Source: Flavobacteriales bacterium (GTDB lineage Bacteria > Bacteroidota > Bacteroidia > Flavobacteriales_F > PHOS-HE28). From it: 64,000 nucleotides of DNA. The notes under the pieces were generated by a model that was given only the letters and a program-made list of their open reading frames with translations, was not told the DNA's origin and made no database searches. Both the position numbers and the translations under genes were made by a program. The stretch is from positions 34,898 to 98,897 of the forward strand of contig JADJOG010000045.1 of NCBI GenBank assembly GCA_016713865.1, read 5' to 3'. Shown one piece after another: positions 2,836 to 58,920 of this stretch (within the stretch, counting starts at the first letter, position 1; every line of letters begins with the position of its first letter).

Positions 2836-2950
2836 TCGCTTATCCAGAAAGGCAGAGGGACTGGCCCTGTGAAGCCTTGGCAACCGTCCGGTGGTGATTC
2901 ATCGGGTAGGTGCTAAATCCAGCCCCGACTTCGTCGGGGAGAGATGAGCC
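2836..2950 (+). promoter_or_regulatory. SAM-I (S-box) riboswitch upstream of the metH homocysteine-binding module gene
   Basis: The sequence cgCTTATCCAGAAAGGCAGAGGGACTGGCCCTGTGAAGCCTTGGCAACC...GGTGCTAAATCCAGCC...GAGAGATGAGc matches the conserved SAM-I cores (AGAGGGA, GGCCC, GCAACC, GGUGCUAAAUCCAGC, GAGAGAU-AG closing P1). A GC-rich stem followed by a T-run (ggggctttttcattt) comes just before the ATG at 3050. Confidence 0.75.
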
Positions 2951-3049: not shown

Positions 3050-4051
3050 ATGAAAACGATCGAACAACTCGCCCAAGAGCGCATCCTCGTCCTCGACGGC
3101 GCCATGGGCACCATGATCCAGAAGCTCGGCCTCACCGAGGAGGACTTCCATCCGCCCGGCATGGAGGACCACAAGATCCTGCTGAAGGGCAACAACGAGC
3201 TGCTCTCGCTTTCGCGGCCCGATGCCATCCGCACCATCCACGAGCAATACCTCGCGGCCGGCGCCGACATCGTGGAGACGAACACCTTCTCCGCCACCAC
3301 CATCGCGCAGGCCGAGCACGAATGCAGCCACCTCGCGCGTGAGCTGAACCTCGCCTCCGTGCGCCTCGCCAAAGAAGCTTGCGCGAAGTACACCGCCATG
3401 GATCCGAGCAAACCGCGCTTCGTGGCCGGCGCCATCGGGCCCATGAACAAGACCGCCTCGCTCAGTCCCGATGTGAACGACCCCGGCTACCGCGCCGTCA
3501 CCTTCGATCAACTTGTTGCTGCATACAAAGAGCAGGTGGAGGCCATGCTCGATGCCGACGTGGACATCCTGCTGGTGGAGACCATCTTCGACACGCTCAA
3601 CGCCAAGGCCGCCTTCTTCGCCATCGACGAGGTATTCCGAGGGCAGGGCACGCGCGTGCCGCTCATGTGCAGCGTCACCATCACCGATGCCAGCGGGCGC
3701 ACCCTCAGCGGCCAGACCATCGAGGCCTTCCTCATCAGCATGCAGCATGTGCCGCTCTTCAGCATGGGCCTCAACTGCGCGCTGGGCGCGGCCCAGATGC
3801 GGCCCTACCTGGAGGTGATCGCCGAGCAGAGCCCCTGCCGCGTGAGCGTTTACCCCAACGCCGGCCTGCCCGACCAGATGGGCGAGTACCGCGAAACGCC
3901 CGAGGTCACCGCGCGTCTCGTGGGCGAGTTCATGGCCAACGGCTGGGTGAACGTGGTGGGCGGATGCTGCGGGACGACGCCGGAGCATATCGCGGCACTG
4001 GCGAAGGAGGCGGGGAAACATGCGCCGCGGACAACACCGGTGCTGGCATGA
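3050..4051 (+). CDS. metH: methionine synthase homocysteine-binding module (Hcy S-methyltransferase domain) as a separate gene
   Basis: MKTIEQLAQERILVLDGAMGTMIQ... aligns to the MetH N-terminal Hcy-binding barrel over its whole length. It ends ...PEHIAALAKEAGKHAPR, the usual Hcy-module boundary. Confidence 0.85.
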   Translation: MKTIEQLAQERILVLDGAMGTMIQKLGLTEEDFHPPGMEDHKILLKGNNELLSLSRPDAIRTIHEQYLAAGADIVETNTFSATTIAQAEHECSHLARELNLASVRLAKEACAKYTAMDPSKPRFVAGAIGPMNKTASLSPDVNDPGYRAVTFDQLVAAYKEQVEAMLDADVDILLVETIFDTLNAKAAFFAIDEVFRGQGTRVPLMCSVTITDASGRTLSGQTIEAFLISMQHVPLFSMGLNCALGAAQMRPYLEVIAEQSPCRVSVYPNAGLPDQMGEYRETPEVTARLVGEFMANGWVNVVGGCCGTTPEHIAALAKEAGKHAPRTTPVLA

Positions 4052-4196
4052 ACGCTTCTTTCTTGGGTTGTTTGGGCGTGCCCCCTCGCAAAGCCTTGGG
4101 GTCGCGCTTTCCGCTGTACTCCTCGCTCGTTCCTCGCTGCGGGGTGCCGCTCCAATCGCTCACGCAATTTCGGCTCTGACCTGAAGTGATCGTCAC

Positions 4197-4640
4197 ATGA
4201 AGAAGGGCACACACGAGAAGAGCATCAGTGAACTCGAAGGCTGGACTTGGACGGACCCAATTCCCTCCGCTGATGACTCGTCCGGTACCGTGCTCCGCTT
4301 CTACCGACTCCACCGAACGCCGATCAAGGATCTGGATCTCGGTGATCTGAGGTTTCTGATCGGTCAGAACGCCGCGTTGGAGCACCTCGTGCCCATGGCA
4401 TTGGATCAACTGAGGAAGAACCTGTTCGTCGAAACAGACTACTACCCTGGTGACCTTCTTCAAGCTCTGTTCTCGATCAACGACGAACCGAGTTATTGGA
4501 CCGCACATCCGGATCATCGCCAGATATTGATCCGACTTTACGAGGACAACATGAGACAAACTCCAACTGTGGAGATGTCCTCAGGTGACTTGAAGAAGAT
4601 CGAACGTGAGTATGAGAAGTTCAAAGCACAGTTAGTCTGA
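4197..4640 (+). CDS. hypothetical 147-aa protein, lower-GC insertion between the two metH genes
   Basis: Intact ORF at about 52% GC in a ~65% GC background. It sits exactly between the Hcy-module gene and the pterin/B12 module gene. No confident family match; a small acidic helical protein. Confidence 0.55.
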
Positions 4641-4641
4641 C

Positions 4642-7176
<2,535 letters not shown>

Positions 7177-7208
7177 ACCCCAATAGCCCTTTCCCGTATG
7201 AACGGGCC

Positions 7209-8450
7209 GTGAAATTGGCCCGCATTCTCTTCTTGCTGGTCGTTGCTGCTAGTGCGTTGCCCGCGCTGGCGCAGCGCACCGCCGCTCCGCTCACGCAGGA
7301 GAACGGCGATTGCATGGGCGCCATCTTCATCGCCGATTCGGTCTTACACCAGCCGCAGGCCGTGCGCGGTTTCGGCAACAAGCTCGAGATCAAGGAGAAC
7401 CCCAGCGACCACACCCAGTGGTTCGAGCGCGAGCATCACAGCACCTGGTACAAGTTCCGCAGCCCCGCCACCACCACGCTCAGCTTCAGCATCATCCCCG
7501 ACAACATCGAGGACGACATCGACTTCCTAGTTTTCGAGGGCGCCATACCCGGCATCTGCGACAAGATTATGGGCAAGCAGGTGCAGCCCATCCGCAGCAA
7601 CATCTCGCGCAACGACAAGAGCAACCGCTCCATCTGCGGCTTGCGCAAGGATGCCCCCGACAACTATGTGCGCAGCGGTGTGGGCAGCAGCTTCAGCCGC
7701 GCCATAGAGGTGAAGCAAGGCGACCTCTTCTATATCGCGATCGATTACCAAGACCGTCCAATCGCTGGTTACACGATCAAGTTCCACTACGACCCTCCGC
7801 CACCGCCGCCCGAGCCGGAGCCCGAGGAGGACAAGAAGAAGAAACAACAACTGCTGATCACCGTGGTGGATGGCAAGACCGGCAAACCCGTGGATGCCAA
7901 CCTCACCATCGATGGCATGCGCTTCAACGAAGTGGTGGAGGCCAAGGGCAAGAGCAGCTACCAGTTCGAGATGGACATGTACCGCAACCTGAAGATCGGC
8001 TGCGTGCGCCAAGGCTATATGTTCCAGACCGTGCGCGTGAAGGGCAGCACCGAGCCAGAAGTGAAGGTTGAGGTGAGGTTGAACCCAGTAGGCGCGGGCG
8101 AGCGCGTGGTGCTCGATGATATCCGCTTCGTGGGCAATGAGGACAAGGTGATGCGCCAGAGCGAGGCCAGCTTGCTGCTCCTATTGCGCTTCCTGCAACT
8201 CAATCCCAAGGTGCGCATCGAGATCGAGGGCCACGTGAACGGCCCCACCTTCAAGAACAAGAAGGAGTTCATCGACCTGAGCACATCGCGATCAAAGACC
8301 GTTTATGACTTCCTCGTGGTGAACGACGTGGAGCCGAACCGCCTATCCTACGTGGGCCTCGGTAACTCCCAGATGCTCTATCCCAGCCCGAAAAACAAGG
8401 AAGAGAGCGAGGCCAACCGCCGCGTAGAGATCAAGGTGCTGGGTAATTAG
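7209..8450 (+). CDS. OmpA family protein (signal peptide, N-terminal beta-rich domain, Pro/Glu/Lys linker, C-terminal OmpA-like peptidoglycan-binding domain)
   Basis: Signal peptide MKLARILFLLVVAASALPALAQ, a linker PPPPPPEPEPEEDKKKKQQ, and a C-terminal OmpA_C-like region (VVLDDIRFVGNEDKV...NRRVEIKVLGN). Confidence 0.8.
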   Translation: MKLARILFLLVVAASALPALAQRTAAPLTQENGDCMGAIFIADSVLHQPQAVRGFGNKLEIKENPSDHTQWFEREHHSTWYKFRSPATTTLSFSIIPDNIEDDIDFLVFEGAIPGICDKIMGKQVQPIRSNISRNDKSNRSICGLRKDAPDNYVRSGVGSSFSRAIEVKQGDLFYIAIDYQDRPIAGYTIKFHYDPPPPPPEPEPEEDKKKKQQLLITVVDGKTGKPVDANLTIDGMRFNEVVEAKGKSSYQFEMDMYRNLKIGCVRQGYMFQTVRVKGSTEPEVKVEVRLNPVGAGERVVLDDIRFVGNEDKVMRQSEASLLLLLRFLQLNPKVRIEIEGHVNGPTFKNKKEFIDLSTSRSKTVYDFLVVNDVEPNRLSYVGLGNSQMLYPSPKNKEESEANRRVEIKVLGN

Positions 8451-8642
8451 CGCTGGCGCAGTTGAGCCTTTTGCATTTTTAATTCTTCTCCGAAGTTTCC
8501 TTCCCATCCCTCACCATCCGTTCGCCCTTCCCGCCGCTCATCACAGCCCTCCTCCCAGGCTGAGGCTCCCCGGTACTTTTGGTCCGTTCCCGCATTCCCA
8601 GCGGGAGAACCGGAACATGAGAGCCTTCTTTTCCTCGCGGCC

Positions 8643-10034
8643 TTGCTTTGCGGAGCCACCGCCTTCGCCCAGCAAGCCTGGACCCTTGAGCAATGCGTGA
8701 AGCGCGCCGAGGAGCGCAGCTTGGCGGTGCTCAATGCCCAGCTCGATGCCGACCTGGCCGACAAGACCAAGGACCAAGGCTATTGGGCTTTGGCCCCCGA
8801 CCTGAACGGCGGCGCCACGCACGGTTACAACTACGGCCGTGTGATCGATCGCTTCACCAACACCTTCGCGAACGACCGGGTGCAGACGAACAACTTCTAC
8901 CTGAGCAGCACGCTGAGCTTGTTCGAGGGCTTCCGCAAGCAAGGGGTGATCAAGCGGAACGAGGTTGATGCGAAGGCCGCGCGTTTGGGCATTGAAGCTG
9001 CCCGCAATCAAGCGCGGCTCGAAACGGTGCAAGCCTTCCTCGATGTGGTGGCGCTGCGCGAACGCAAGGCCGCCGCTGAAGCACAAGCGGCAAGCACGCG
9101 CGAACAGATCGCGCGCACCGATGCTTTGGTTGAGGCGGGCCGTGTGGCGCGCGCCGATCTGCTCGCGATTGAATCGCAATTGGCACAAGAGGAATTCACC
9201 ATCGTGGATCTCGGCAACCAAGCCGATCAGCGCATGCTCGCTTTGGGCCGCGCACTTCAATTGGAGCCGCAAGAGATGCTCAGCTTCAACATCCAAGCAC
9301 CTGCCATCAGCGGGCTGCGCATCACGGAACCGACGGTCGATCCAAGTGAAGTGCTCGGGAACGTGCTGCGCACCAATCCCAGTTTCGCGCAGGCAGAGAC
9401 GCAGGTGGAAAGCGCCGAGAAAGGTATTGGGATCGCACGGGCGGGCAGTTTGCCCACGCTCGGCGTGAACGGCTCTCTCGGAACTGGATATAGCGGTCGC
9501 AACTTCCAGCAAGTGGGAGAGCCCATCCTCGGCAATCCGGTGGTCATCGGCAGTACGCTCGGTGGAGATCTGGTGTACGCGCCGACCTTCGATGTGAACA
9601 CCGAGCTCACACCGTTCGGCACCCAACTGGATCAGAACCTGAACCAGAGCATTCTCTTCCAACTCAACGTGCCGCTCTTCAATCAGAAGCAGAACCGCTT
9701 GGCCATCGACCGTGCGCGGGTGCAGCACGAGCGCGCGCGCAATAGCCTCACCGCTGTTCGCAATGACTTGCAGCGCAATGTGCTCGACGCCATTGTGGCG
9801 CAGCGCTCGGCCTACAAGCAGTTCCTGGCCGCGCAAAAGGCCGTGGATGCCGCAACACTCAACGAGGCCTACGCCACCGAGCGCTTCACGCAGGGCGTGA
9901 TCACCAGCATGGAGCTGGCCACCGTGAAGGCCACCGTGAACCGCTCACAGGCAGACCAGATCGCCGCCAAGTACCAGTACCTGATGGCGCAGAAGTACCT
10001 CGAGATCCTGCAAGGGATACCCGTTTCTTTGTAA
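8643..10034 (+). CDS. TolC family outer membrane efflux protein (start region frameshifted or TTG start)
   Basis: 463-aa ORF with TolC-like alpha-helical repeats. An ATG at 8617 is out of frame by one base; restoring a single A (atgaAgagc) would give MKSLLFLAALLCGATAFAQQ, a clean signal peptide. Confidence 0.75.
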   Translation: MLCGATAFAQQAWTLEQCVKRAEERSLAVLNAQLDADLADKTKDQGYWALAPDLNGGATHGYNYGRVIDRFTNTFANDRVQTNNFYLSSTLSLFEGFRKQGVIKRNEVDAKAARLGIEAARNQARLETVQAFLDVVALRERKAAAEAQAASTREQIARTDALVEAGRVARADLLAIESQLAQEEFTIVDLGNQADQRMLALGRALQLEPQEMLSFNIQAPAISGLRITEPTVDPSEVLGNVLRTNPSFAQAETQVESAEKGIGIARAGSLPTLGVNGSLGTGYSGRNFQQVGEPILGNPVVIGSTLGGDLVYAPTFDVNTELTPFGTQLDQNLNQSILFQLNVPLFNQKQNRLAIDRARVQHERARNSLTAVRNDLQRNVLDAIVAQRSAYKQFLAAQKAVDAATLNEAYATERFTQGVITSMELATVKATVNRSQADQIAAKYQYLMAQKYLEILQGIPVSL

Positions 10035-10714: not shown

Positions 10715-11623
10715 TCACCGCCGCGTGGCTGTGAGCTTCAGCACGTGGATGTTGCCCGTCGCGAGGTCCTTCCGCAAGCGCGCCTTGGGCAGCATGGTAG
10801 CTTCTTCATACACGTATTCGTCGCGGCTCACCTGTTTATCACCGAGCCAATACTCGCCAGCGATCACATTGCCAGCCGAATCATACTGCCAGCGATGGTG
10901 GGTGATCCGCGATTGCGCCAGATCAGGCTGCTCCGTGCGTTCCGCGAGGCGCCCATTTTCATCGTAGCTGAAGTCGATGCGGCCACGGCGACGGCTCACG
11001 AGGTATTCATCCTCGATGCGGAGCAAGTAGCCCTGCCTGTTGCTGATGAATACCTGATTCCGGTACGGCAGTTCGAGGTTGTTCAGGAACGACTTGCGCA
11101 AGGTGGTGTCGTTCAGCTGCGTGTAGCGGTAGCGCTCTGCGCTGATCTCGATGGTGGCGCCGGGAACCAGCTCATACCGGTTGGTTCCGCGGTTCTCGAT
11201 GCGCTGGTACACCTCCCTCGTCACACGTCCGTGCTCATCGTGCTCCATGGCGAAGGCGAAATGCCCGCCGAGGTCGTTGCGCAAGCGGCGCATGGTGCGG
11301 CCCTGCGCATCGCGCTCGTAGGTCACGCTCGCCGTGTCGCGGCCGGTACCGGGCTGGCCATACGAGGTATTGCTGTACACCATGCGGCCATCGGCATCGA
11401 AGCGGAAGAGCAAGCGGTCGCGCTCGTTGCGCATGGGCTCGCCGTCACGCTTGACCATGCGCTCGCCCACGAAGCCGGCGATGCCGTTGCGCGCGATGAA
11501 GCGCTCATTGAACACCGGCACATCGGGATCATCCGTGCTGGGCAGAAGCAGCAAGGCCTGGCTCCTCGCGCTGGAAGCGAAGGCGAATGGAAGGAAGAGG
11601 AAGACGGAACGGGAGAGTCTCAT
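10715..11623 (-). CDS. secreted hypothetical protein with YD/RHS-repeat-like motifs
   Basis: Signal peptide [23 protein letters not shown] and repeated YDxxGR motifs ([39 protein letters not shown]). Confidence 0.55.
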
Positions 11624-16159: not shown

Positions 16160-16439
16160 GAGCAGGTGGTTTTTATAGCCGCCGAATATAGGTGCAGTGC
16201 GCTGGGCAACCTTGGATGGGGGGATGCGGTCTTCGATTGGCGCCGAAGACCTATTTTTCAACGCGTTTCGGCACTCCATGATGCCACTACGGCGGCTTGT
16301 TTGCTTGGCCTCCATGCCTCCGCGGTCGCGGTGTTTCGGTCAACTGGCGGTGACCACCAGCCAGTCACCCCTGGTAGATGGTGCAGAATGTCCTTTCGGG
16401 AACGGGGTTTCAGCGACGAATATCACCTAAACACCTGAC

Positions 16440-18821
16440 CCTGGTGCCCGAATGGCCATTCACCGCGACCAACTCGAACCTGGGATTGGACGCAGGCGTG
16501 ATTCTTTAGTGGGCTTGGGCTCGATGCGGGGAGGATTCAGCATCCGGAACCTGGTGAGCAATGGCTTCGATTTCTTGCCGAACACCATTGGCGATGCTGA
16601 TTTGCCGCCATTTCCGGTTTCGATGTTTATGATAAGGCCGTGCTTGAGTTCGATTTCATTCCAACAGGCGATACGCTGCGATTCAGATACGTTTTCGGCA
16701 GTGAAGAGTATCCGAATTACACCTGCGGTTCGGTAAATGATGTTTTCGGTTTCTTCTTGAGTGGCCGGGCATCAGTGGGCCATTCCAGAACAATGCAATG
16801 AACCTCGCATTGGTCCCCGGCACGAAACATCCCCATCTGCATCAACACGGTTAATTCAGGGGTGGCAAGCCGGATTTGACGATACGAATTGCTTCAAGCC
16901 GATCCGAATTGGCAAGCGAACAGCATTTACTTCGTTGATAATGCCGGTCAAAGCGGCGGCACCGTGACCTACGATGGCATGACGGTGGTGCTCACCGCTT
17001 TCGCACTGGTGCAATGTGGGACACAGTACCACATCAAAATCGCTATCGGGGATGGCACTGATCCGGTTCTCGATAGCGGCGTTTTCTTGAAGGCAGGCTC
17101 CTTCGCCAGCACCGGCCAAGTGATTCCCTGCCCTTGCACAGGATACCGGTGATTATAGGGAACACGATGCTCGAAGGCTGCAATCCGGTTGAGCTGAGCT
17201 TCACGCGCTTGGGCGATACCACCACGGTCGATACCGTGGACATCACGGTTTCCGGCACCTCAACCCCGGGAGTCGACTACAGCATCATATTCCCCGAGTC
17301 AGCTCATTTATCCCCGTTGGCATTGAGACAATCGTCTTCACCTTCGATGTGCCCATCGACGCCGACGGCCCTGAGACCATCGTATTCACCATCCAACAGC
17401 TCGTTGAATGCGCCGGACAGGTGATTCAGACCGAGTTCACCTTCAACATCGACAGCCCGCCTCCATTAGTAGTTCAATCGAACAACATCAACGGCGTGTG
17501 TGGCCAAACGCACCTGCTTGCACCCAGTGTGAGCGGGGGCATGGGCCAGTACACATATGCTTGGAGCACAGGACAAACCACGTCATCGATAAGCGTCAAC
17601 CCTGCTGTAACCACCACCTACTCCGTCACTGTAACCGATGTGTGCGGTATCGCGCCAATCACGGTCGATTTCACCGTGACCCTTCCGGTGTATTTGCCGC
17701 TTACGCTGAATGTCACAAACGATACGCTGATTAACTGCTTAGGTACTGGGCCGATCTCAGCGTTCGGGGTAACTGGCGGCAACAATGTGTACCTGTACCA
17801 ATGGACCTTGAACGGAGCAGTGGTTGGCAATACAGCAACGATCAATGTGCCGGCAGCCTCGCCGCCCCTCACTTATGTGGTCACGGTCACCGAAGGTTGC
17901 GGCAGCAGCATCCAGGACAGTGTGGTGGTTGGCACGGTGCCATTGGATCCGATCGTAATCTCAACAGACGGTGATCAGACGCCGATCTGCACTGGAGATA
18001 CGGTCACGCTCACGATTACAGGCATCACGGGTGGCAATGGCGTTTATTCATGGCGCTGGTATGATCCGGATGGACTTCTCGTGGGCAATGGCTGGACGAT
18101 CGATGTGCCGGTGCTTGGAAATCAACCATACACCATCGATGCCATTGACCAATGCGGCAACACGGGCAGCACGGTCGTGAGCGCATTGTTGCCGATCTAC
18201 GCGCCCTTCACGCTCGACCTTGGCGACGACAAGCTCCTTTGCGCCGGCGACAGCACCACTATCCATGCGCTTGTGACAGGAGGCAGTGGTTTCTACCACA
18301 TCCTTTGGGCGGGCCCCGATAGTCTCACAGACCCGCTGTACTGGGTGAAGCCGGATGATGAGACCACCTATTCCGTGATGGTGCGCGACCAATGCGGCGA
18401 GGAATTGACCGACGCGATCACCATCGAGGTGGAGCACATCCACATCGACATCCTCGTGAACAATCTGGGCCAAGATGATTGGTACCTGCAGGCCCAGACG
18501 TTGCCGTACGCGCGCACTTGGATCTGGGACATGGGCGATGGCACACGCTACCGGTATGATGAGGTACGGCACAGCTACCTCGACCTCGATGAGCACCTGG
18601 TGCGCCTGAAGATCGTGACCCCAAACGGATGCTTGGCTGAGGATTCCGTGCTGATCCGCCCTCCTGCGCACATCTACTTCCCGAACGCCTTCACCCCCGA
18701 TGGCGATGGCCGCAACGATCTGTTCGGCCCAGCAGGGCATTACATCGATAAGTTCGGCATGACGATATTCGACCGCTGGGGCCAGGTGGTGTTCACCACT
18801 GAAGATGTGAATATCCAATGA
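16440..18821 (+). pseudogene. T9SS type-B cargo protein, paralog of the next gene, with a decayed N-terminal region
   Basis: 16440..17350 translates in at least four frames to a recognisable copy of the N-terminal domain of the 18969 protein (KAVLEFDF..RFRYVFGSEEYP..ADPNWQANSIYFVDNAGQSGGTVTYDGMTVVLTA..QCGTQYHIKIAIGDGTD..DSGVFLKAGSF), interrupted by stops. 17349..18821 is an intact 490-aa ORF ending in the gliding-motility C-terminal domain ([16 protein letters not shown]...DRWGQVVF). Confidence 0.6.
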
Positions 18822-18968: not shown

Positions 18969-21191
18969 ATGAAGACTCGAATCATCGTGACGGGGGCGGC
19001 GGGCATATTGCTGGGCGCGGCACAGGCTCAATTGGCGATCGATCAAAGCCTCACTCCCACGCAGCTCGTGCAGAATGTGCTGCTGGGATCCGGCGTCACT
19101 GTGAGCAATGTGAGCTTCAATGGGGTTCTGAACCCTGCGACTGCGCAGCCTGGCAGCGGATCCTTCACGGCCACGGGAAGCAATCTCGGGCTCTCGGCAG
19201 GCGTGCTGCTCACAAGCGGCGAGGTGCAGCAGGTGGCAGGGGCAGCCTCTTATTTCGCGAGCGGCTTCAACAGCACAGGTAGTGACCCTGACCTCGCGAT
19301 ACTGGCCAATCAGACCATCAACGACCGTGCGGTGCTCGAATTCGACTTCGTGCCCGTTGGCGACACGGTGAAGTTCCGCTACGTGTTCGGTTCTGAGGAA
19401 TACCCGGAGTATGTATGCACCACTTTCAATGATGCGTTCGGGTTCTTTCTCAGTGGCCCCGGCATAGCGGGCCCGTTCCAGAATGGCGCAATCAATATAG
19501 CCCGCGTACCGAATTCGAACATCCCGATCGCGATCAATACGGTGAACCCCGGCACTCCGGGCTCCTCTGGCGGTCAGGCATCCGTGTGCGCCGCGGCCGA
19601 TCCCAACTGGCAGAGCAATAGCCAGTACTATGTGAACAACGGTGCAGGGGCTAGCGTGTGCTACGATGGCTTCACCGTGGTGCTCACGGCGCGGCATCCG
19701 GTGCAATGCGGCCAGACCTATCACATCAAGATGGCCATTGGCGATGGCTCGGACAGCTCGTTCGATAGTGGTGTGTTCCTCGAGGCCGGTAGCTTCACCA
19801 GCACACCGTTCGTTCCATCGCTCACTCCGGGTCCGGGCATCATTGGCAACAATACGATCCAAGAGAGCTGCTACCCGGTAACGATCAATTTCTCGCAGAC
19901 CGGTGCTGCGAGCGACACAAGCGTAGTCTATATCGTGGTCGGAGGCACGGCAACGCCCGGTGTCGATTACGTGCCTGCATTCCCCGATTCGCTGGTTTTC
20001 TACCCAGGCGATACCATGATCACGTTCGTCTTCACGGTGCCTATCGATGCAGATGGCACCGAGACCATCGAACTCACGCTGATCTCTGAATCGCCTTGCG
20101 CGGGAGTCACAATAACGAACACGTTCATCTTCAACATCATCCAATCGCCGCAACTGGTGATCGTAGGCAATACCCAAGTGATCCCTTGCGGAGGATCAGC
20201 CACTCTCACGCCAACGGTATCCGGTGGCTATCCGCCATACACCATCAGCTGGCCAGGCGGGTTGACAGGGCCGAGCATCACGGTTTCACCATTGGACAAC
20301 ACGGTGTATACCGCAACCGTGACCGATGATTGCGGAACAACTGCTGTCGCGCAGTTCTTCGTTGAGCTCGACCCCTTGCCACCGATCAACATGAGCATCA
20401 TCGGGCCTAGTACGGTCATGGAGGCCTGCGATCGATCCGCAGTGAACATCATCCGGCCGCAAGGCGTGCCGGGCGATGTGACCATCACATTCTCATTCAC
20501 CGGCAATGCCACGCCCGGCCAGGATTTCCAGTGGCCCGCCAGCGCCTTGATACCTGATGGCGTGCTGAACATCACCTTGCCCTTCGAACCGGGAGAGGAT
20601 GGCATCGCAGACGATGGCGAGACGACCACCATTACTGCCACGTTCACCGACGATTGCGGCCGCACGACTTCTGCAAGTGTCACATTCACCATCATCGATG
20701 CGCCTTTCCTGGGCGTGGAAACGGGCGACTTCGTTGTGGAGTGCCAGCCCGATAGCATGCTGCTGGTTGCTCAGGGAATCGGCGGAGTTGGCAACCTCAG
20801 CTATTCGTGGTCGAATGGTACGGCCGGTCCTGCCACCTACGTGACGATACAGATTCCGGGCACCTATACGGTGACGGTCACCGACGAATGTGGTCGCACC
20901 GCCCAGGACATCGCGCAAGTGATCACCATCTGCGATGTGGTTATCCCGAACGTGATCACGCCCAACGGCGACGGCAGCAACGATCGCTTCGAGATTGAAG
21001 GCATCCTGTACGTGAGCAACACCGTGAAGATCTACAACCGTTGGGGCCAGGAAGTGTTCTTCTCGAAGAACTACAAGAACCAATGGGATGGTGACGATCT
21101 TCCGGATGGCACCTATTTCTACGAGGTGACCGTTTCCCGAAGGGAAGAGCCTTACACAGGTCATTTGACGATCCTGCGTAACGGCTGGTAG
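18969..21191 (+). CDS. T9SS type B sorting domain-containing secreted protein (N-terminal choice-of-anchor-L-like domain, Ig-like middle, C-terminal gliding motility-associated domain)
   Basis: Signal peptide MKTRIIVTGAAGILLGAAQA, an N-terminal domain with the VLEFDFVP...YVFGSEEYPEYV...DSGVFLEAGSF motifs, and a C-terminal TIGR04131-like domain (VIPNVITPNGDGSNDRFEI...IYNRWGQEVF...DGTYFYEV). Confidence 0.8.
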   Translation: MKTRIIVTGAAGILLGAAQAQLAIDQSLTPTQLVQNVLLGSGVTVSNVSFNGVLNPATAQPGSGSFTATGSNLGLSAGVLLTSGEVQQVAGAASYFASGFNSTGSDPDLAILANQTINDRAVLEFDFVPVGDTVKFRYVFGSEEYPEYVCTTFNDAFGFFLSGPGIAGPFQNGAINIARVPNSNIPIAINTVNPGTPGSSGGQASVCAAADPNWQSNSQYYVNNGAGASVCYDGFTVVLTARHPVQCGQTYHIKMAIGDGSDSSFDSGVFLEAGSFTSTPFVPSLTPGPGIIGNNTIQESCYPVTINFSQTGAASDTSVVYIVVGGTATPGVDYVPAFPDSLVFYPGDTMITFVFTVPIDADGTETIELTLISESPCAGVTITNTFIFNIIQSPQLVIVGNTQVIPCGGSATLTPTVSGGYPPYTISWPGGLTGPSITVSPLDNTVYTATVTDDCGTTAVAQFFVELDPLPPINMSIIGPSTVMEACDRSAVNIIRPQGVPGDVTITFSFTGNATPGQDFQWPASALIPDGVLNITLPFEPGEDGIADDGETTTITATFTDDCGRTTSASVTFTIIDAPFLGVETGDFVVECQPDSMLLVAQGIGGVGNLSYSWSNGTAGPATYVTIQIPGTYTVTVTDECGRTAQDIAQVITICDVVIPNVITPNGDGSNDRFEIEGILYVSNTVKIYNRWGQEVFFSKNYKNQWDGDDLPDGTYFYEVTVSRREEPYTGHLTILRNGW

Positions 21192-21310
21192 AGCTCGATC
21201 GTATTCGTGCTCAAGTCAGTTGCAATGGTTGTTCGCAGTGCCTGAGATTTCGTTGCGGGGTGCGTCTTCGCTGAAGTGAACCGTATGCCTATGGTGGGTG
21301 TTTCACCATT

Positions 21311-22000
21311 GTGTCAGATCCATTTCTTGTCATCGGCGGCACGCGAGGCATTGGCCGCAGTTTAGCCGAACAGCTCATCGCGAAAGGCAATTCGGTTATT
21401 ACGGTTGCCCGCTCCAATGGCGCTCCAGCTGGTGTGCTACGGCATATGCAGCGCGATATCCTTGCTGAAGGTTTGTCTTCCGAAGAACTGCCAGAAGCGC
21501 TGAGCGGTCTCGTTTACTGCCCCGGCAGCATCGACCTTAAGCCCCTGCGCTCGCTGATGGCCGATGATCTAAGAGCATCATTCGAGCTCAATGTGATCGC
21601 GGCCTTCAGCGCCATACAGGCTTGCGCAGAACGGCTGAGGAAGAATCCTGGCTCTGGTGTGGTGCTCTTCAGTACCGTTGCCGTTCAGCGGGGAATGGCC
21701 TTTCATGCTTCAGTTGCTTCCGCCAAAGGCGCCGTGGAAGGATTAACGCGCGCCTTGGCCGCGGAGCTAGCACCGAACGTGCGTGTGAACTGCATCGCAC
21801 CGAGCCTGACGCGCACTTCGCTCGCTGAGAAGCTCCTGAGCACGCCCGAACGCGAAGCGGCCAGTGTGGAACGTCACCCGCTTAAGCGTGTGGGCGAAGC
21901 GCAGGAGGTAGCGGCAATGGCGGCTTTCCTTTTGAGTGACAACGCACGCTGGATAACCGGACAAGTGATAGGAGTGGATGGCGGCATGAGCGCTATTTGA
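21311..22000 (+). CDS. SDR family oxidoreductase (short-chain dehydrogenase/reductase)
   Basis: GTG start; the Rossmann motif IGGTRGIGRS and the SDR catalytic region. Confidence 0.8.
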   Translation: MSDPFLVIGGTRGIGRSLAEQLIAKGNSVITVARSNGAPAGVLRHMQRDILAEGLSSEELPEALSGLVYCPGSIDLKPLRSLMADDLRASFELNVIAAFSAIQACAERLRKNPGSGVVLFSTVAVQRGMAFHASVASAKGAVEGLTRALAAELAPNVRVNCIAPSLTRTSLAEKLLSTPEREAASVERHPLKRVGEAQEVAAMAAFLLSDNARWITGQVIGVDGGMSAI

Positions 22001-29560: not shown

Positions 29561-29905
29561 TGGCTTGTGCATGCTGCTAAGGTTTGGTCGGCTTTCATGC
29601 GCTAAGGTGATGCCCGTCATTCAATCGGCAGAGTTGGATTCAAATGGCATGTCTTGCGGGGGAAGCACGAAGGGGATGGACGGTCGTGCGCTACACACGC
29701 GCGTGTTGACAAGTGCGCACCGCTGCGAACAGCATCCCAAGAATGCCCCGATACGTTTGCCCGGCACCCTACCTGAACGCGCGTGCGCTTCTGCGCCATG
29801 GTGCATCGGTGGCTCTCCACACCGGTCATCGGGGACTGAAGCGTCCATTGGAGAAGTCCTCCATTGGTTTCGAGCCGAGGGCGGTGCTCACAAGCCGTTC
29901 GGCAC

Positions 29906-32900
29906 ATGATGGAACATCGACCCCTTGCCCTGGTGAGCAGCGCATCGCGCTCAATCCTTTCCCGGTTCATTAAGCCTCTGATCGCGTCGCTGGCCGCATT
30001 GCTGCTTTGGCAAGGCGAAGCGCGCGCCACCCACGCCATGGGCGGCGAGCTCACCTATGCTGGCATCTATCGCGTGCGCCTGAATTTCTATCGCGACTGC
30101 AATGGTGTGGAGGCGCCAACGAATTGCAGCAACGGCCGGCAATTCCGGTTGCGCAGCACGGCATGCGGGAACATCACGCTTAATCCATGCTTCGGTCTGG
30201 ATGGCGTCGACGTGGTTACTCCGCTATGTTTCGGAGCAGCCGACCGCTGCACCAATTCCAGCGCGCAGTACGGAATCCAGCGGTACCGCTACAGCGCGGT
30301 AGTGAACCTGAGCGCCTACGCGGCATGCGGCAGCGACTGGGTGATCGATTGGGACCTATGCTGTCGCAACAACGCGATCACCTCGCTCAACAATCCCGGT
30401 TCGCGCAACTTGTACCTGTACGCTAATCTGCGCCAGACCGTAACACCCTGCAATAACTCACCTAGCTTCCTGAACACGCCCACCCCGTTCGCCTGCGTGG
30501 GCCAGCAAGTGAGCTATAACCACGGCTTCAACGATGTGGATGGCGATTCACTCTCCTTCTCCCTGGTTGGCGCTTTAGGCTCGAATGGCAGCGCGATCCC
30601 CTACAATGCAGGGTACTCGGCCACGCAGCCGGTGGTTACCAGCGGCGGCGCCAATGCTGTGCAGATCAACCCGGTGACGGGGACCATCACCTTCGTTCCC
30701 AGCATCCAGCAGTTCGCTGTGGTGACCGTGCGCGTGCGCGAGTTCCGCAACGGCGTGCAGATCGGCGAACTGCTCCGCGACGTTCAGTTCGCGATCATCG
30801 CTTGCAGCAACAGCCTGCCACAAGCCACCGGCGTGAATGGCACTGGCACCTATACCTATAATGTGTGCGCAGGGGAGACTTTCTGCTTCACCGTGAACAG
30901 CAGTGATGCCGATGCCGCGCAGGTTGTGACCATGGCTTGGAACAATGGTATTCCGGGCGCCACCTTCACGACAACTAACGCTCCGCGTCCCGTTGGCACG
31001 TTCTGCTGGACACCTGGTGTCGGCGACATCGGCCAGAATCTGTTCAGCGTGAATGTGCAGGACAATGCCTGCCCGCTGGTTGGCCAGAACAATTTCGGCT
31101 TCGCGGTTCAGGTTACGCCGCCTTTCACGCCTGCTAATGCTGGCCCGGATCAGAATGTATGCGGCGCAACAGCGACGCTTGCAGGGCTGTTGCCATGGCC
31201 CGTGCAAGGTACTTGGTCCGTCATTAACGGTACCGGCACCTTCGCCAATGCGAATAGCCCGACCACCACGGTGAGCGGGTTGAGCCCGGGCACGAACACC
31301 TTACGATGGACCGTGAACTATGGCACCTGCGGCACCACGAGCGACGATGTGGTGATCATGAGCTTCAACCCTGCGCAGCCCGTGGCGAACGCTGGCCCCA
31401 ACCAGAGCCTTTGCCTGCCCAGCACCAGCACCGCATTGGCGGCGAATACCGCAGCCGCACCCGCTACGGGCCAATGGACCTTGGTGAGTGGCACGGGCAG
31501 TTTCGTGAATGCGAACAGCCCAACGACTCAAGTGAACGGTCTCAGTGTAGGTGCCAATGTCTTCCGCTGGACCATCAATAACGGGCCCTGTGGCGCACCC
31601 ACGAGCAGCAATGTCACGGTTTTCGTTTTCAGCAACGTGCAGCCTGCGGCGAATGCAGGCCCAGACCAGCAATTGTGCGCGCCTACGACCAGTGCCACGC
31701 TAGCTGGTAACGGCGTCATATTCCCTGCAACCGGAACTTGGACGGTTGCGAATGGCACGGGCACCTTCGTGAATGCGAACAGCCCATCCACCCAAGTGAG
31801 CGGGCTCAGCATCGGGGTGAATACATTCCGATGGACCATCAGCAACGGCCCTTGCCTGCCACCTACCACGCAGGATGAAGTGAACGTGGTGGTCTTCAAC
31901 CCGGCCAGCCCCAACGCGAATGCCGGACCCAACCAGCAGGTGTGCAGCAGCAGCACAACGCTTGCGGGCAATGCGCCATTGGCGCCGGCCACGGGGACCT
32001 GGAGCGTGATCAGCGGCACCGGCACATTCGCCAATGCGAATAGCCCAACCACTTCGGTGAGCGGGCTCTCCTTCGGCAACAACGTTTTCCAATGGACCTT
32101 GAGCAATGGTCCTTGCGCCAACGGCATCACCAATTCGCAGGTGACCATCACGCGCTTCGATCCCAATACGCCCGCTGCCGATGCAGGACCCGACCAGGAG
32201 CTCTGCACGATAGGCGCCACCGGATTCGCATCGGCTACCATGGCGGCGAGCGCAGCATCTGCACCGGCAACCGGCTCGTGGAGCATCATCAGCGGTCCTG
32301 CGGGAGCATTGATCACCACGCCTTCGAGCGCTGCGACCACAATCACCAACCTCGCGGTAGGCACCCACACCTTCCGCTGGACGGTGAACAATGGCCCTTG
32401 CATTCCGCCGACCTCCACGGACGATGTGGTGATCCGCGTGTACGACCGTAACGCACCCGTTGCGAACGCTGGCCCCAACCAGAACCTGTGCGCGCCTGTT
32501 GCAAGCGTGACGCTCGCCGCCAACGCAGCAACGGCACCTGCGATCGGCACATGGACGCTGGTGAGCGGTCAAGGAGTATTCGCCAATGCCAACAGCCCAA
32601 CCACCACGGTAACGGGCATGGCGATCGGCACGAACGTTTACCGGTGGACCATCGTGAATGGCCCATGCCCCGGAGCTATCACGTCAAGCACGGTTACCAT
32701 CACGCTCTTCGATCCCTCTGTTGCGGCGGCCAATGCCGGTCCGGATCAATCGCTCTGCGGCGCCACAAGCACTGTTATGGCGGCCAACGCCGTTGCGGCG
32801 CCTGCCGTTGGCACATGGAGCGTGGTGAGCGGCACCGCCACCATCAGCAATCCGAATAGCGCCACCACCGCCATCACGGGGCTGGGTACGGGCAGCGTCA

Positions 32901-35900
32901 CCTTGCGCTGGACGATCAGCAACGGGCCTTGCGGAAGCACGAACGACGATGTGGTGATCCTGAATTTCGACCCGAACAATCCTGTCGCCAACGCTGGCCC
33001 GGATCAGGAGATCTGTGTTCCTGTTGCGCCGAACGTGGTGTTCATGGCGGGTAGCCCGGTCACCTTCCCTGCGGTAGGCACATGGAGCGTTGTAAGCGGT
33101 CCGCCCGGCGCGGCCATCGCGAATGTGAATAGCCCGACAACGCAGATCGGGAACCTCACGGTTGGAACCTATGTGTTCAGCTGGACGGTTGACAACGGTC
33201 CATGCCCGAGCGGTATCACGACAGACAACATGACGGTGCGCGTGTTCGACTTCGGCAATCCCGCAGCGGATGCAGGCCCGGACATCTCGCTGTGCACCAC
33301 TGATGGTACAGTGACCATGGCGGGCAGCAACCTGATCAGCCCGGCTACCGGCCAATGGACCTTGGTGAGCGGCACTGGTGTGATCACGAGCCCTGGCAGC
33401 CCCACCACGACAGTTATCGGCCTGCAAGTGGGCCAAAGCATTTTCCAATGGACCGTTAGCAACGGACCCTGCAGTGGTGTGACCACGGATCAGATGAGCA
33501 TCTTCATCTACGATCCGAACAACCCGAACGCGAGCGCTGGACCGAACCAGGCTTTCTGCACACCGATCACCAGCACCACTATGGCCGGCAGCGCGGTCAC
33601 ATTCCCCGCGCAAGGCACATGGTCGCAAAGCGGCGGACCAGCAGCCACGATCGCCAGCCCCAACAGCCCCACCACGGCGATCACGGGATTGCAAGTAGGC
33701 GTGAGCCAATTCACCTGGACAGTGAACAATGGCGTGTGCCCCAACGGTGTCACCAGCAGCAGCATGACCATTACGCTGGCCGATGGTGATGCGCAGGCCG
33801 CCGCTGCCGGACCCGACCAGAGCGTTTGCGGCACGAGCAGCAGCGTGTTGATGGCGGCCAATGCGCCCACGGGTGTAGCTACCGCTAGTTGGAGCGTGGT
33901 TGCAGGAACCGGTTTCTTCAGCAACATCAACAGCCCCACCGCCACGGTAACGGGGATGAGCATTGGCTTGAACACATTCCGTTGGAGCATCGACAATGGC
34001 GCGTGCGGCATCACATCGGATCTGGTCGACATCTATGTGTACGATCCGAACAACCCAGTCGCGAATGCAGGTGCGGACCAGCAGCTGTGCACGCCCACCA
34101 CGAGCACCACGCTCACGGGCAGCAATTTGATTTTCCCCGCAGTGGGCCAATGGACCTTGGTGAGCGGCAGCGGCACTATTGCCAACCCCACCAGCCCCAG
34201 CACGGGCGTGAGCGGCTTGAGCATCGGCGCGAACGTGTTCCAATGGCAGGTGAACAATGGCGCTTGCCCCAGCCCCATCACCACCGATCAGGTAACGGTG
34301 TTCGTTTACGATAACGATGCGGCCGCGGCGAATGCCGGACCCGATATCGATGTGTGCACACCCACTAACAGCGTGAGCATGGCTGCCAACAGTCCGGTTG
34401 GCGTAGCGGTTGGGACTTGGACGCTCACCGGCGGCGCGGGCGGCACGGTAACCAATCCGAACAACCCGAACACCACGATCACCAACCTGCCCGTGGGCAC
34501 GCATACCTACGCTTGGACCATCGTGAACGGCAACTGCGCCACTACCAGCGATGAAATGGTTATTCGTGTGTTCAGCGCGCTGAACCCGAACGCCAACGCG
34601 GGCAACGATCAGCAGCTCTGCTTGCCTGCCACCACCACGACGCTGCAAGGCAGCAACGTGATAAGCCCGGCAACCGGGACGTGGACGCTGGTGAGCGGAA
34701 GCGGCACGCCCACCAACCCGGCTAACCCGAACAGCTTCGTGATCGGCTTGGCCGTTGGCGAGAACGTGTTCCAGTGGAACGTGAGCAATGGCCCTTGCGC
34801 CAACTCGCTCACAACGGATCTGGTGAGCGTATTCCTCTTCGATGATCAGCAGCCGCCTGCAGATGCTGGCGCCGACATTGAGATCTGCACGCCTGAGAGC
34901 GAAGTGACGCTCAGCGGCAACGATGTGATCTTCCCGGCAGAGGGCTTCTGGTTCCAAGTGAGCGGCTTCGGCACCATCACCGATCCGAGCGATCCCAACA
35001 CCACAGTTACCGGTCTGCCTGTTGGCGAGCACATTTTCCGGTGGGAGATCAGCAATGGTCCTTGCGGCGTGACGAATGATGATGTCGCCGTGCGTGTGTA
35101 CGATGTGAACAATCCTGTCGCGGATGCAGGGGCCGGATCAGGAGCTCTGCTTGCCGCAGACCAGCACCACCATGGCAGGCAGCAGCTTGATCTTCCCTGC
35201 CACGGGCCTATGGACGCTCGTGAGCGGACAAGGATCCATCGGCAGCCCCGGTTCGCCCACTACGGATATCACCAACCTGGCCGTTGGCGAGAACGTGTTC
35301 CAGTGGACGGTATTCAATGGCCCATGCAACGAGCCCACTGTTGATGTGGTGAGCATCTTCGTATTCGACGACCAGCAGCTTGATGCAGATGCTGGCGCGG
35401 ATCAGAGCCTATGCACGCCAACGAACGTCACCACGCTGTTCGGCAATGCGCTCACCTTCCCCGCCACGGGCACATGGACCTTGGTGAGTGGGCAGGGCAC
35501 CATCACTGATCCCGCTTCGCCGGTCACCACGGTTACCGATCTCGGTGTAGGCATCAATGTGTTCCGCTGGACGATCAGTAACGGACCGTGCCCCAACGGC
35601 CTCACGCAGGATGATGTGACCATCTTCCTGTTCGACCTGAACAATCCGCCCGCGAACGCAGGTCCGGATCAAGAGCTCTGCACGCCGCAGACCAGCACCA
35701 ACCTCGCGGGCAATACGCCCACGGTGCCTGCTATCGGCACCTGGTCGCTGATCAGCGGGCAGGGCGATATCACTGATCCGAACGATCCGAACACGCTGGT
35801 GACGAACCTGGCCGTGGGTGAGAACATCTTCCAATGGATCTTCGACAACGGGCCTTGTGAGACCAGCGGCAGCAGCGATCTGGTGAGCATCTTCGTTTAT

Positions 35901-38900: not shown

Positions 38901-39641
38901 ATGCTCGCCAGCGCGGTTGCTGCACCCGGCGTGGGTACATGGTCAATCGTAAGCGGCTCTGCAACCATCGCGCAGGACACCGATCCCTTCACTGTGATCA
39001 CCAACCTGGGCCTTGGGGCCAACGTGTTCCAATGGACCGTTGACAATGGCGCATGCGGCACCACCAGCGATCAGATCACGATCATGGTGTACGACCACAC
39101 CGTGCCTGCGGCGAATGCCGGTCCGAGCCAGCAGTTCTGCCAGGATGTGAGCACCACGACCCTCGGCGCAGTGCCCGCCACCAGCACCGCGAGCGGAAGC
39201 TGGAGCCTGTTGAGCGGCAGCGGCAACATTGAGCAGCCCGGCAACCCGAACAGCGCGGTCAACGGCCTTGCGCTTGGCTACAACGTGTTCCTGTGGACGC
39301 TGAACAACGGCGACTGCGGCACCACCACCGATACGATGACGGTGTATATCAAGGACTGCCTCACGATCAAGATCCCCGATGCCTTCTCACCCAACGGCGA
39401 TGGCACCAACGACGAGTTCGTGATCACCAACATCGAGAGCTATCCGAACAACACCTTCCAGGTATTCAACCGCTGGGGCAACAAGGTGTACGAGGCATCG
39501 CCTTACACCAACAAGTGGGACGGCACCAGCCAGTTCGGATCGGCATTCAAGGAAGGACTGCCGGAGAGCACCTACTACTACATCCTGGACCTCGGCAACG
39601 GCAGCGATGCCTACACCGGATTCATCTACCTGCGACGCTAA
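29906..39641 (+). CDS. giant cell-surface adhesin (SprB-like organisation) of ~3240 aa with about 32 tandem ~85-aa repeats and a C-terminal T9SS type B (gliding motility-associated) sorting domain, carrying 3 single-base frameshifts
   Basis: Signal peptide (IKPLIASLAALLLWQGEARA), a Cys-rich N-terminal domain, and repeats of consensus NAGPDQxLCxPxTSxTLAGN..FPAxGTWTLVSGxGTxxNPNSPTTxVTGLxVGxNVFxWTVxNGPC...TTDxVTIxVFD. The C-terminus is IPDAFSPNGDGTNDEFVI...VFNRWGNKVY...STYYYIL. Four ORF-track pieces (29864..35344, 35124..37103, 37100..38782, 38694..39641) are contiguous in homology, with 1-nt indels near 35128, about 37045 and about 38705. Confidence 0.75.
31120..39350 (+). repeat. in-frame tandem array of ~255-nt (about 85-aa) coding repeats inside the giant adhesin gene
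   Basis: The NAGPDQ / GTW(T/S)(L/V)VSG / NGPC landmarks recur at a period of about 255 nt. The copies differ at the nucleotide level by roughly 30-50%. Confidence 0.7.
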
Positions 39642-53643: not shown

Positions 53644-54432
53644 CTAGGCGGCCACCCCAACAACACTCACCATCGCCGCCTTCGCCGCATCCACAGCCAG
53701 CTCCGCGCTAGCGAGGTTTTGCGAAGCGATGGCAGGGTTCTTCGCATCCAGCAGCACGCTGATCATCAACGTCCCCTGCTTCGCTTGCACCGTGAACCGC
53801 CTCGGGTGCGCTCCATCAGTATTGCAAGTGTGAATGAACCGGCAGGCTTCACCGTCGGATCTCGAATCCCGTCTCCGTCGATACTGTGTCAACCATTGGC
53901 GCAAGGCGATCCGATCCGTCCGGGTAAAGACGGTGTCAACTCCCAATTCGCCCAACTCACCGGTATTCATCGAAACAACGAGCGTGTCGTTGGTCTCCAC
54001 CAGAAAGGCGCTGCGTTCATACACGCCGCCGTGGTGGTCGTTCTCGGCAAGGGAGAACCAATGGGGCAGCTTCGAGCATCCATCGAAGAGGGTGAGCGTT
54101 AGATACCGCACCGCATGGTCGCACTCGGGAGAACTGTTCAGGACAAGGAGCCCCAAGCGAGATTCCCTTATCAAGATCTTGCCTATGACCCACGCAGAAT
54201 CACTTTCCGTCATTCTCCTGTCGTGAAGGGCTTGGAAACCTTCCGCATCCAAGCTGATCCAATTCGGATCAATCGTCTTTTCAACGTAGTTCAGGTCGAA
54301 CTGGCGTTCCGTTATCACAGGAGCGCTTCCAATGACCTCGCACAGATCAGAAGGGGATGAGGGCAGGCGAGGATAACCAAGTTGACTCAGCACGAGCGGC
54401 ACACAGGTCAACAAGGTCAGGGAGGGCTTCAT
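53644..54432 (-). CDS. hypothetical secreted/lipoprotein whose 3' end is a diverged copy of the mfd 3' end
   Basis: Signal peptide MKPSLTLLTCVPLVLS. Its last ~100 nt are homologous to the last ~90 nt of mfd: both contain caccatcgccgccttcgc and gcacgctgatc...gtcccc, and the proteins share a C-terminal ...AKAAM(V/E)SVVGV..AA tail. Confidence 0.45.
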   Translation of the reverse strand: MKPSLTLLTCVPLVLSQLGYPRLPSSPSDLCEVIGSAPVITERQFDLNYVEKTIDPNWISLDAEGFQALHDRRMTESDSAWVIGKILIRESRLGLLVLNSSPECDHAVRYLTLTLFDGCSKLPHWFSLAENDHHGGVYERSAFLVETNDTLVVSMNTGELGELGVDTVFTRTDRIALRQWLTQYRRRRDSRSDGEACRFIHTCNTDGAHPRRFTVQAKQGTLMISVLLDAKNPAIASQNLASAELAVDAAKAAMVSVVGVAA

Positions 54433-54477
54433 GCCAATTGGTTCAGGTGTTGGTTGAACGATCTACGGACCAAGTTC

Positions 54478-57891: not shown

Positions 57892-57931
57892 TGTGCCGGT
57901 GTGGTTATGCGTTGACAGCAAGGGCAAGTGT

Positions 57932-58792: not shown

Positions 58793-58920
58793 GTTTCGGT
58801 GATATGGTCACACAAACGCCCGAAACCCGGTGCCGCACATCGCGGGCATCGGGTTCGGGTGGTCAAATGTACCGTCATGGGTTCGCTCAGTATGTAGCTT
58901 TTGTCGTATAGCTTTCCGAC

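Follow-up and report, generated by a model that had tools for sequence, protein, structure and literature searches.

A CdiI_3-family gene, probably an orphan immunity gene, at the inter-module junction of a metH operon in Flavobacteriales

The closest solved relative of the protein discussed here is CdiI, the immunity protein of Escherichia coli UPEC536. In the structure 5J5V, this all-helical protein forms a ternary complex with CysK and the CdiA-CT tRNase toxin (PMC9086364). CdiI, the one solved member of its family, binds the Ntox28 tRNase domain of CdiA and thereby blocks the active site. The UPEC536 toxin is the only characterized member of the Ntox28 family, and CdiI coordinates its active-site residues directly (PMC9086364). 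A second point of reference is the concept of orphan immunity genes and acquired interbacterial defence (AID), which is documented for gut Bacteroidales in excerpts of two articles (PMC12247911, PMC11901371). Here, we describe an open reading frame (ORF) at positions 4197–4640 of the + strand in a 64,000-nt stretch of a Flavobacteriales genome assembly (GCA_016713865.1, contig JADJOG010000045.1, positions 34,898–98,897; hereafter “the window”). The ORF belongs to the CdiI_3 family of immunity-type proteins, has no adjacent toxin gene, and lies between two genes that encode different modules of the methionine synthase MetH. We think it reasonably probable that it is an orphan immunity gene riding in the metH operon, as cargo at the junction between the modules.

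The CdiI_3-family gene

The ORF starts with ATG and encodes 147 amino acids. Its product matches the Pfam family CdiI_3 (PF18616, “CDI immunity proteins”) with an E-value of 1.6e-20 and a score of 73.3 bits, against a cut-off of 28; the match places residues 26–109 on positions 12–93 of the 95-position profile. All 16 close homologues carry the same precomputed match. A preliminary description, made from the letters of the sequence alone, had seen no recognizable family here, which the Pfam match corrects. The same description had also ventured, as speculation, that the ORF might encode an immunity protein, and the CdiI_3 match bears this out, as do the sequence similarity to the solved UPEC536 protein and a weak match in fold. 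In a single-sequence phmmer search of the PDB, the ORF retrieved 5J5V_C (“Immunity protein CdiI”) with E=8.1e-5, and a profile built from 17 sequences retrieved 5J5V_C as its sole significant match (E=7.3e-9). An AlphaFold2 model based on 16 homologues is all-alpha, with eight helices (predicted local distance difference test [pLDDT] 75.7; predicted template modelling score [pTM] 0.63). When this model was compared with the PDB using Foldseek, the only high-probability matches (1.00) were chains F and C of 5j5v, although the superposition itself is weak (E ~0.01, template modelling [TM] score 0.40–0.47, root-mean-square deviation ~7 Å).

Other resources add to this picture. NCBIfam gives no match for the ORF, even though NCBI names its relatives “contact-dependent growth inhibition system immunity protein”. 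PADLOC has no match at E≤0.01 for the ORF or for five proteins encoded by the alternative cargo genes described below. An exhaustive search with hidden Markov models (HMMs) found 2258 representative CdiI_3 clusters at E≤1e-3. Among the best 150 of these 2258 clusters, most are stand-alone proteins of 130–150 aa; the family also includes a few tandem duplications and one fusion to a SUKH-1/SMI1_KNR4 domain, i.e., to another immunity superfamily. Judged by the profile matches, the membership of the ORF in the CdiI_3 family is secure. Read directly, the N-terminus has no hydrophobic stretch and no signal peptide is apparent, in agreement with the preliminary description; the product would be a cytoplasmic, all-helical protein.

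The ORF is also conserved. A protein search found 15 homologues with 65–83% identity, and one with 32%. Nearly all of the close homologues with a source name come from Flavobacteriales metagenome-assembled genomes (MAGs), and the database record for the window's own protein is a hypothetical protein from a “Flavobacteriales bacterium” MAG. The read sets ERR1356722 and ERR1352925 also contain an ORF identical to this one. Across 17 aligned homologues, 23 columns are invariant, including DLRFL-GQ and YPGDLL, and the start codon and length are kept as well. Pairwise ratios of nonsynonymous to synonymous substitution rates (dN/dS) between four CdiI_3 orthologues are 0.09–0.20, with dS ranging from 0.46 to ~1.9; this is similar to, or stricter than, the constraint on the neighboring OmpA-like and TolC-like genes. 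Because there are 15 close homologues, dN/dS is low, and length and start are conserved, the ORF is, as far as sequence comparison goes, a real gene under purifying selection and not a chance ORF. Two minus-strand ORFs that overlap the region (3930–4559 and 3850–4212) have no Pfam match, and were taken as shadows.

In composition, the ORF differs from its surroundings, as the preliminary description had seen. Its GC content is 51.8% (55, 36, and 64% at the first, second, and third codon positions, referred to as GC1, GC2, and GC3), compared with 65.3% in the metH gene upstream (GC3 88%) and 61.9% in the first segment of the metH gene downstream (4642–5187; GC3 85%). Among all 444-nt windows across the 64 kb (mean GC content 60.0%, standard deviation 3.0%), the ORF ranks within the lowest 1.9%. 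Its orthologues are all GC-poor too (47–53% vs 55–65% in their flanks), lying 7–14 GC points lower. The preliminary description had read the low GC content as a sign of horizontal acquisition, and had named as counter-evidence a lack of conservation or relatives with the same ORF at native GC; the ORF is conserved, and none of the orthologues reaches the GC content of its flanks. Taken alone, low GC content is, however, weak evidence of recent transfer, because amino acid composition (GC1 and GC2) contributes as much as codon choice. The claim of a foreign insert stands, given that metH is unsplit in the outgroup (see below). The implied recency does not: the gene occupies the same slot in at least six related lineages, at 65–83% identity and under purifying selection, and it is found on the two deepest branches of the clade.

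The window has other GC-poor stretches (48–54% in 444-nt windows), at 16311–17845, 20871–21515, 49441–49985, 54031–54615, and 57801–59665. The GC-poorest of these, 57801–59665, holds a 189-aa ORF (58921–59490) with no Pfam match.

The metH operon and its junction

Upstream of the CdiI_3 gene, at 3050–4051 (+), is a separate gene for metH module 1, a homocysteine (Hcy) S-methyltransferase of 333 aa (Pfam S-methyl_trans, 328 bits). Downstream, at 4642–7176 (+), are metH modules 2–4, i.e., the pterin, B12, and S-adenosylmethionine (AdoMet or SAM) activation modules. The preliminary description had placed the ORF in a 590-nt gap between these genes, and with both flanks confirmed by Pfam this holds: the gap (4052–4641) is taken up by the ORF (444 nt), with a spacer of 145 nt before it and 1 nt after it.

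The operon is headed by a SAM (S-box) riboswitch aptamer (Rfam RF00162) at 2837–2950 (+), 100 nt upstream of the Hcy gene. The match scores 88.4 bits against a gathering score of 44.4 (E=1e-19), and the riboswitch is kept in 10 of the 11 relatives scanned. Just upstream of the riboswitch, at 2812, is the sole Bacteroidetes-type −7 box on the + strand between 2700 and 4700. This box, TATATTCG, has one mismatch to TAnnTTTG, and no box of the same type lies between the riboswitch and the ORF. A scan of 3900–4900 for sigma-70-type promoters found none, and a terminator scan found only a weak minus-strand hairpin at chance level. The stop codon of the CdiI_3 gene and the start codon of the downstream metH gene are arranged as TGA-C-ATG, and the same stop-N-ATG geometry occurs in L004, L007, and L103 (related loci are designated here by L numbers). 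In the basal lineages, the CdiI_3 ORF starts 12–14 nt after the Hcy stop codon. Because a riboswitch heads the operon, no internal promoter is recognizable, and the downstream junction is TGA-C-ATG, the CdiI_3 gene most likely shares a riboswitch-controlled transcript with metH and has its translation coupled to that of the gene downstream. The operon would comprise three genes, running from the SAM riboswitch through the metH Hcy gene and the CdiI_3 gene to the pterin/B12/activation modules of metH, with CdiI_3 borrowing the transcription of the operon.

A CdiI_3 gene lies between the S-methyl_trans and pterin/B12 genes in the window, in L004/L005 (GCA_041391865 and GCA_020635715), in L006 (GCA_019638115), in L007/L008 (GCA_016712535 and a JGI contig), and in two more divergent lineages, L101/L102 and L103/L104. 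Its presence among relatives is variable; it is absent from the gap in L009–L022. A scan for the Hcy protein, with one genome per species, gave 80 further loci, none of which has a CdiI_3 gene in the metH gap. In the closest of these loci (85–94% Hcy identity), the gaps are 200–860 nt long and hold quite different ORFs. Among the sister species, the cargo is a 163-aa multi-pass membrane protein (L009, L011), a secreted protein of 224–241 aa (L010, L016) or 168 aa (L022), a lipoprotein-like ORF (L020), or a 101-aa ORF (L014); L089, a related JGI contig, has an uncharacterized ORF of 101 aa in the slot, and the slot of L013 is almost empty. Pfam and NCBIfam searches with the alternative cargo proteins of the sister species gave no match. 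In the nearest outgroup (L017–L019; 77–80% Hcy identity), metH is a single, uninterrupted gene, with ...HAPRPIKTIA-DPIPEFSGLE... continuous where the window has ...APRTTPVLA, a stop codon, and then the insert. The preliminary description had asked whether the gap is normally empty in relatives: in the outgroup there is no gap, the gene being fused, and within the clade the gap holds CdiI_3, other cargo, or almost nothing.

Since the outgroup metH is continuous and sister species have unrelated cargo or none, CdiI_3 appears to be an insert relative to the ancestral state. Rough neighbor-joining trees built from the Hcy and pterin segments place the two most divergent CdiI_3 bearers (L103 and L101) on the first branches; in the crown of the same trees, CdiI_3 bearers are mixed with bearers of other cargos. 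Under the simplest history, metH was split at the base of the clade and CdiI_3 arrived with that split or shortly afterwards; vertical inheritance followed, and several lineages have since lost the gene or had it replaced. There is conflict between gene trees, with the window being closest to L007 for OmpA (87%) and TolC (89%) and farthest from it for Hcy (88%) and CdiI_3 (71%). This comparison (window 3050–10034 vs L004, L006, and L007) points to a possible recombination breakpoint in metH or close to it.

Between the S9 peptidase gene and the riboswitch there is a second variable slot, which is empty in the window. In some relatives, it contains a CdiI_3 paralogue that is 46–56% identical to the window's protein; in others, it contains a PIN-domain toxin-antitoxin-like pair (second-slot positions: L004 5915–6373, L089 6001–6423, L021 3932–4210, L005 5832–6348, L006 5800–6316, and L101 967–1507).

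The spacer between the Hcy stop codon and the cargo contains a conserved element of ~100 nt (4073–4179, minus strand) with a sub-threshold, Flavo-1-like motif. The minus strand at 4096–4179 matches Rfam RF01705 (Flavo-1) with 28.9–29.3 bits, against a gathering score of 42 (E=0.0016), and the part of the Flavo-1 core that is matched reads GAUUG-AGCGG...AGCGGAAAGCG. The element starts with TGGGCGTGCCCC, continues with GCGCTTTCCGCT and a variable hairpin, and ends with CCGCT-CAATCGCTCACGC. It is single-copy in the window and near-identical in all crown-group relatives with cargo, whatever the cargo, in spacers of 145–257 nt; it is not present in the basal CdiI_3 loci L101 and L103. The likeness to Flavo-1 is a resemblance only, and no Flavo-1 match at the gathering threshold was found in 11 related loci. 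Flavo-1 itself is a computationally inferred motif of unknown function, and its hits in F. psychrophilum occur in either orientation, many of them outside transcribed regions (PMC9723704, PMC2864571). We do not claim the spacer as a structured RNA: the 145-nt spacer folds no better than shuffled sequence (z=0.17), and RNAalifold finds almost no covariation in the element. An integron-like cassette was likewise rejected, the conserved element being 5′ and not 3′ of the ORF, the 3′ end of the ORF being 1 nt from the metH start codon, and no integrase being nearby.

Various palindromic or tandem repeat elements occur in the spacers of relatives, namely GCAACGACGCGAC-type and CGCAGAGGCGCAGAGAGCGCAGAGG-type hairpins, CTGATTGCTAATTGC hairpins, and a tandem repeat coding for “WTMDNG”. 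The repeat-bearing spacers are those of L006, L010, and L013 (~70–150 nt after the Hcy stop codon), L020 and L022, L004 and L016, and L055 (6971–7325). As sequences, the repeats look like repetitive extragenic palindromic (REP) or miniature inverted-repeat transposable (MITE) elements accumulating at the metH junction.

The state of the junction can be followed more widely across Bacteroidota. Both halves of metH were found in 79 loci, drawn from the 80 scan loci, the CdiI_3-bearing contigs, and the window; metH is fused in 31 of the 79 and split in 48. Spacers of split loci range from 19 nt to 1.4 kb, and many Bacteroidota have a split metH with a 19–160-nt spacer and no middle gene. Gaps with cargo were observed among L009–L022, L024, L032–L055, and L083. 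In distant Bacteroidota, the cargos of the longer spacers include 23S-rRNA-intervening-sequence (23S-IVS) proteins, i.e., four-helix-bundle proteins (L035, L041, L044, L045, L052, and L055), and GxxExxY/PDDEXK_3 proteins (L048 and L050); these were assigned by reading the sequences, with Pfam confirmation for L035 (four-helix bundle) and L048 (GxxExxY). Further cargos there are a response-regulator receiver, a QueF-like protein, and OmpA-family proteins, the last recognized from sequence alone. In the loci compared, metH thus tolerates being interrupted at the Hcy|pterin boundary, and small genes collect there. A broader version of this idea is possible, and we offer it tentatively: across Bacteroidota, small cargo genes might repeatedly land, and be exchanged, at this junction. 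Within the present Flavobacteriales clade, CdiI_3 might have been the first occupant, possibly as the insertion that split metH, and might later have been swapped for other cargos together with the conserved Flavo-1-like element, which would have placed an immunity function under the control of a SAM riboswitch.

The downstream metH gene of the window has a broken frame, and its Pfam domains (Pterin_bind, B12-binding_2, B12-binding, and Met_synt_B12) were matched on four frame segments. Compared with intact orthologues, which have 902–959 aa (912 aa in L007), it has an extra nucleotide near 5178 and another near 5827, lacks one near 7086, and has lost 148 nt near 6183, which takes ~49 codons from the end of the B12-binding domain; the B12-binding match in the window ends at position 90 of 121. 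None of the indels falls in a long homopolymer. The same gene is frameshifted in three other MAGs (L004, L005, and L013), and the S9 peptidase gene is split in L005 and L006. Because other MAGs show such frameshifts and a split S9 peptidase, assembly error is likelier than a true pseudogene as the cause of the broken frame. Elsewhere in the window, a region at 29864–39262 encodes a giant PKD-repeat (K319L-like) adhesin in two + strand ORFs of 1826 and 560 aa, and the stretch between them is full of high-GC3 minus-strand shadow ORFs. This region is probably one giant gene broken by frameshifts or assembly errors.

Immunity and other possible roles

If the ORF is an orphan immunity gene, its most likely role would be to bind a related toxin stoichiometrically and thereby neutralize it. 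The toxin would come from competing bacteria, or from an unlinked locus of the same genome. The genes adjacent to the ORF, i.e., the Hcy module of metH on the 5′ side and the pterin/B12 module on the 3′ side, do not form the arrangement of a toxin-immunity pair, and the locus as a whole has S9 peptidase, metH, OmpA-like, TolC, and TsaB genes as its neighbors. Within ±8 kb in six CdiI_3 loci, the called genes are those for cytochrome oxidase, S9 peptidase, metH, OmpA, TolC, and TsaB, with no integrase or transposase among them; no phage record matches. Four other CdiI_3 copies of Bacteroidota (L089, L092, L094, and L096) have no recognized toxin gene alongside, several of their neighbors being unannotated, and orphan status is the rule for CdiI_3 in these contexts. 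On the Aureibacter plasmid pAT1, a CdiI_3 copy follows an RHS core fragment at a distance of 1.1 kb, on its downstream side. A copy on a Streptomyces plasmid is ~4 kb away from an SMI1/KNR4 gene, and transposase genes, of the IS5 family and others, flank this copy at 3–5 kb on either side.

Several points weigh against immunity as the function of the ORF. No cognate toxin was found, and the neighbors are housekeeping genes. A tblastn search with the Ntox28 domain of UPEC536 (identical to residues 132–228 of 5J5V_B) gave no match, either in the window or in related loci totalling 1.08 Mb. None of the ten window ORFs that are largest or most atypical has a toxin domain; they encode peptidases, type IX secretion substrates (with PKD or CHU_C domains), Mfd, a BNR-repeat protein, and a small RHS-repeat protein. 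Moreover, Ntox28 is given for Actinobacteria, Proteobacteria, and Firmicutes, and not for Bacteroidetes (Zhang et al. 2012). Against a large protein database, the same Ntox28 query found only close enterobacterial relatives; because this search relies on shared 5-residue words, the absence of a Bacteroidota toxin is not established. The identity to the solved CdiI is just ~23% and the fold match is weak in both superposition and model confidence, and as a result the toxin specificity of the ORF cannot be inferred from this relative. It would also be odd for an immunity gene to be shut down when SAM is plentiful, as the riboswitch would imply, unless basal read-through suffices or an unrecognized promoter exists. 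Lastly, the fact that the gene has been kept in a tight operon since the base of the clade could instead point to a role linked to MetH.

These points lead to other accounts of the gene. One is that the ORF is not an orphan but the partner of a toxin encoded elsewhere in the genome, e.g., an Rhs-type or type IX-secreted polymorphic toxin, with the two genes being unlinked. The 64 kb inspected are only a part of the genome, the gene for the small RHS-repeat protein (10715–11623) lies ~6 kb downstream of the ORF and has an equivalent in L007, and the Aureibacter copy mentioned above is also near an RHS sequence. However, the RHS-repeat protein of the window is only 301 aa long and has no toxin domain, Ntox28-like sequence is lacking from the window and related loci, and the four other Bacteroidota copies have no recognized toxin gene beside them. 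In addition, sister species do without the CdiI_3 gene, which would be lethal if a conserved self-toxin existed. We therefore regard an unlinked partner as unlikely.

Less likely again is that the ORF encodes a domesticated protein with the CdiI_3 fold, no longer concerned with immunity but tied to methionine synthase or to methionine or SAM limitation, e.g., by bringing the two MetH halves together. In favor of this, the gene is the middle gene of a SAM-riboswitch operon, its geometry would suit coupling to the downstream gene in most lineages and to both neighbors in the basal ones (12–14 nt upstream and 1 nt downstream), it has been retained from the deepest branches of the clade under purifying selection, and the split of metH in the clade coincides with the presence of CdiI_3. 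Yet sisters with 88–94% identical Hcy genes carry unrelated cargo or nothing between intact metH halves, many Bacteroidota with a split metH have no middle gene, other members of the CdiI_3 family occur in unrelated contexts, and a 46%-identical paralogue sits in a different slot, after the S9 peptidase gene. A functionless hitchhiker, i.e., a remnant cassette kept only because its removal would damage the operon, would fit with the lack of a known partner toxin and with a slot that tolerates many inserts and, in L013, an almost empty state, but is the most doubtful of the three accounts in view of dN/dS values of 0.09–0.20 with synonymous divergence near saturation in several pairs, the length, start codon, and family motifs kept across 16 homologues, and the fact that no frameshifted CdiI_3 copies were seen.

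We continue to favor an orphan immunity gene. The ORF is a further orphan member of a large, known immunity family, and its placement in a riboswitch-controlled housekeeping operon is unusual but explicable.

Comparison with known systems

The ORF resembles CdiI of UPEC536 (PDB 5J5V and 5J43) in several respects. The two proteins are homologous according to HMM and PDB profile searches, both are all-helical (predicted, in the case of the ORF), and they are of similar size, with 147 aa for the ORF and 138 aa for the chain sequence of 5J5V_C. They also share the motifs E/D-DL...I-QN...L-P..L..L...EYY-G-L..AL. In contrast to CdiI, and apart from its low sequence identity, the ORF lies outside a cdiBAI locus, with neither Ntox28 nor any other toxin adjacent, and is found in a Flavobacteriales host, embedded in a biosynthetic operon. 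A link to the dependence of the UPEC536 toxin on CysK, and hence to sulfur metabolism, was considered and set aside as a coincidence, other family members being without such a context.

The 23S-IVS and GxxExxY cargos of distant Bacteroidota are comparable in another way. Like the ORF, they are small, have a GC content below that of their flanks, lie on the metH strand, and occupy the same inter-module junction of metH. Unlike the ORF, which belongs to an immunity family, they come from unrelated families of unknown function. Taken as a group, these cases show that metH can be split at this domain boundary, where unrelated small genes have settled repeatedly (genes for CdiI_3, 23S-IVS four-helix-bundle proteins, GxxExxY nucleases, and others). 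The junction is a compact natural system in which to study how cargo genes enter essential operons and turn over within them. There is also a warning for annotation, as a “split metH” often hides a middle gene.

AID and the orphan immunity genes of Bacteroidales provide the closest parallel to the situation of the ORF as a whole. In both cases, a gene of an immunity family is found without a toxin in Bacteroidota, has an atypical composition, and is variable among close relatives. AID clusters are multi-gene arrays on mobile elements, some of them with recombinases. The ORF, by contrast, is one gene only, has neither recombinase nor mobile-element genes in its vicinity, is fixed in a housekeeping operon, and appears to have been inherited vertically through much of its clade. 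Its placement shows that a single immunity-type gene can become fixed in an essential, riboswitch-regulated biosynthetic operon and persist there under selection through speciation, in contrast with the mobile-element arrays of gut Bacteroidales.

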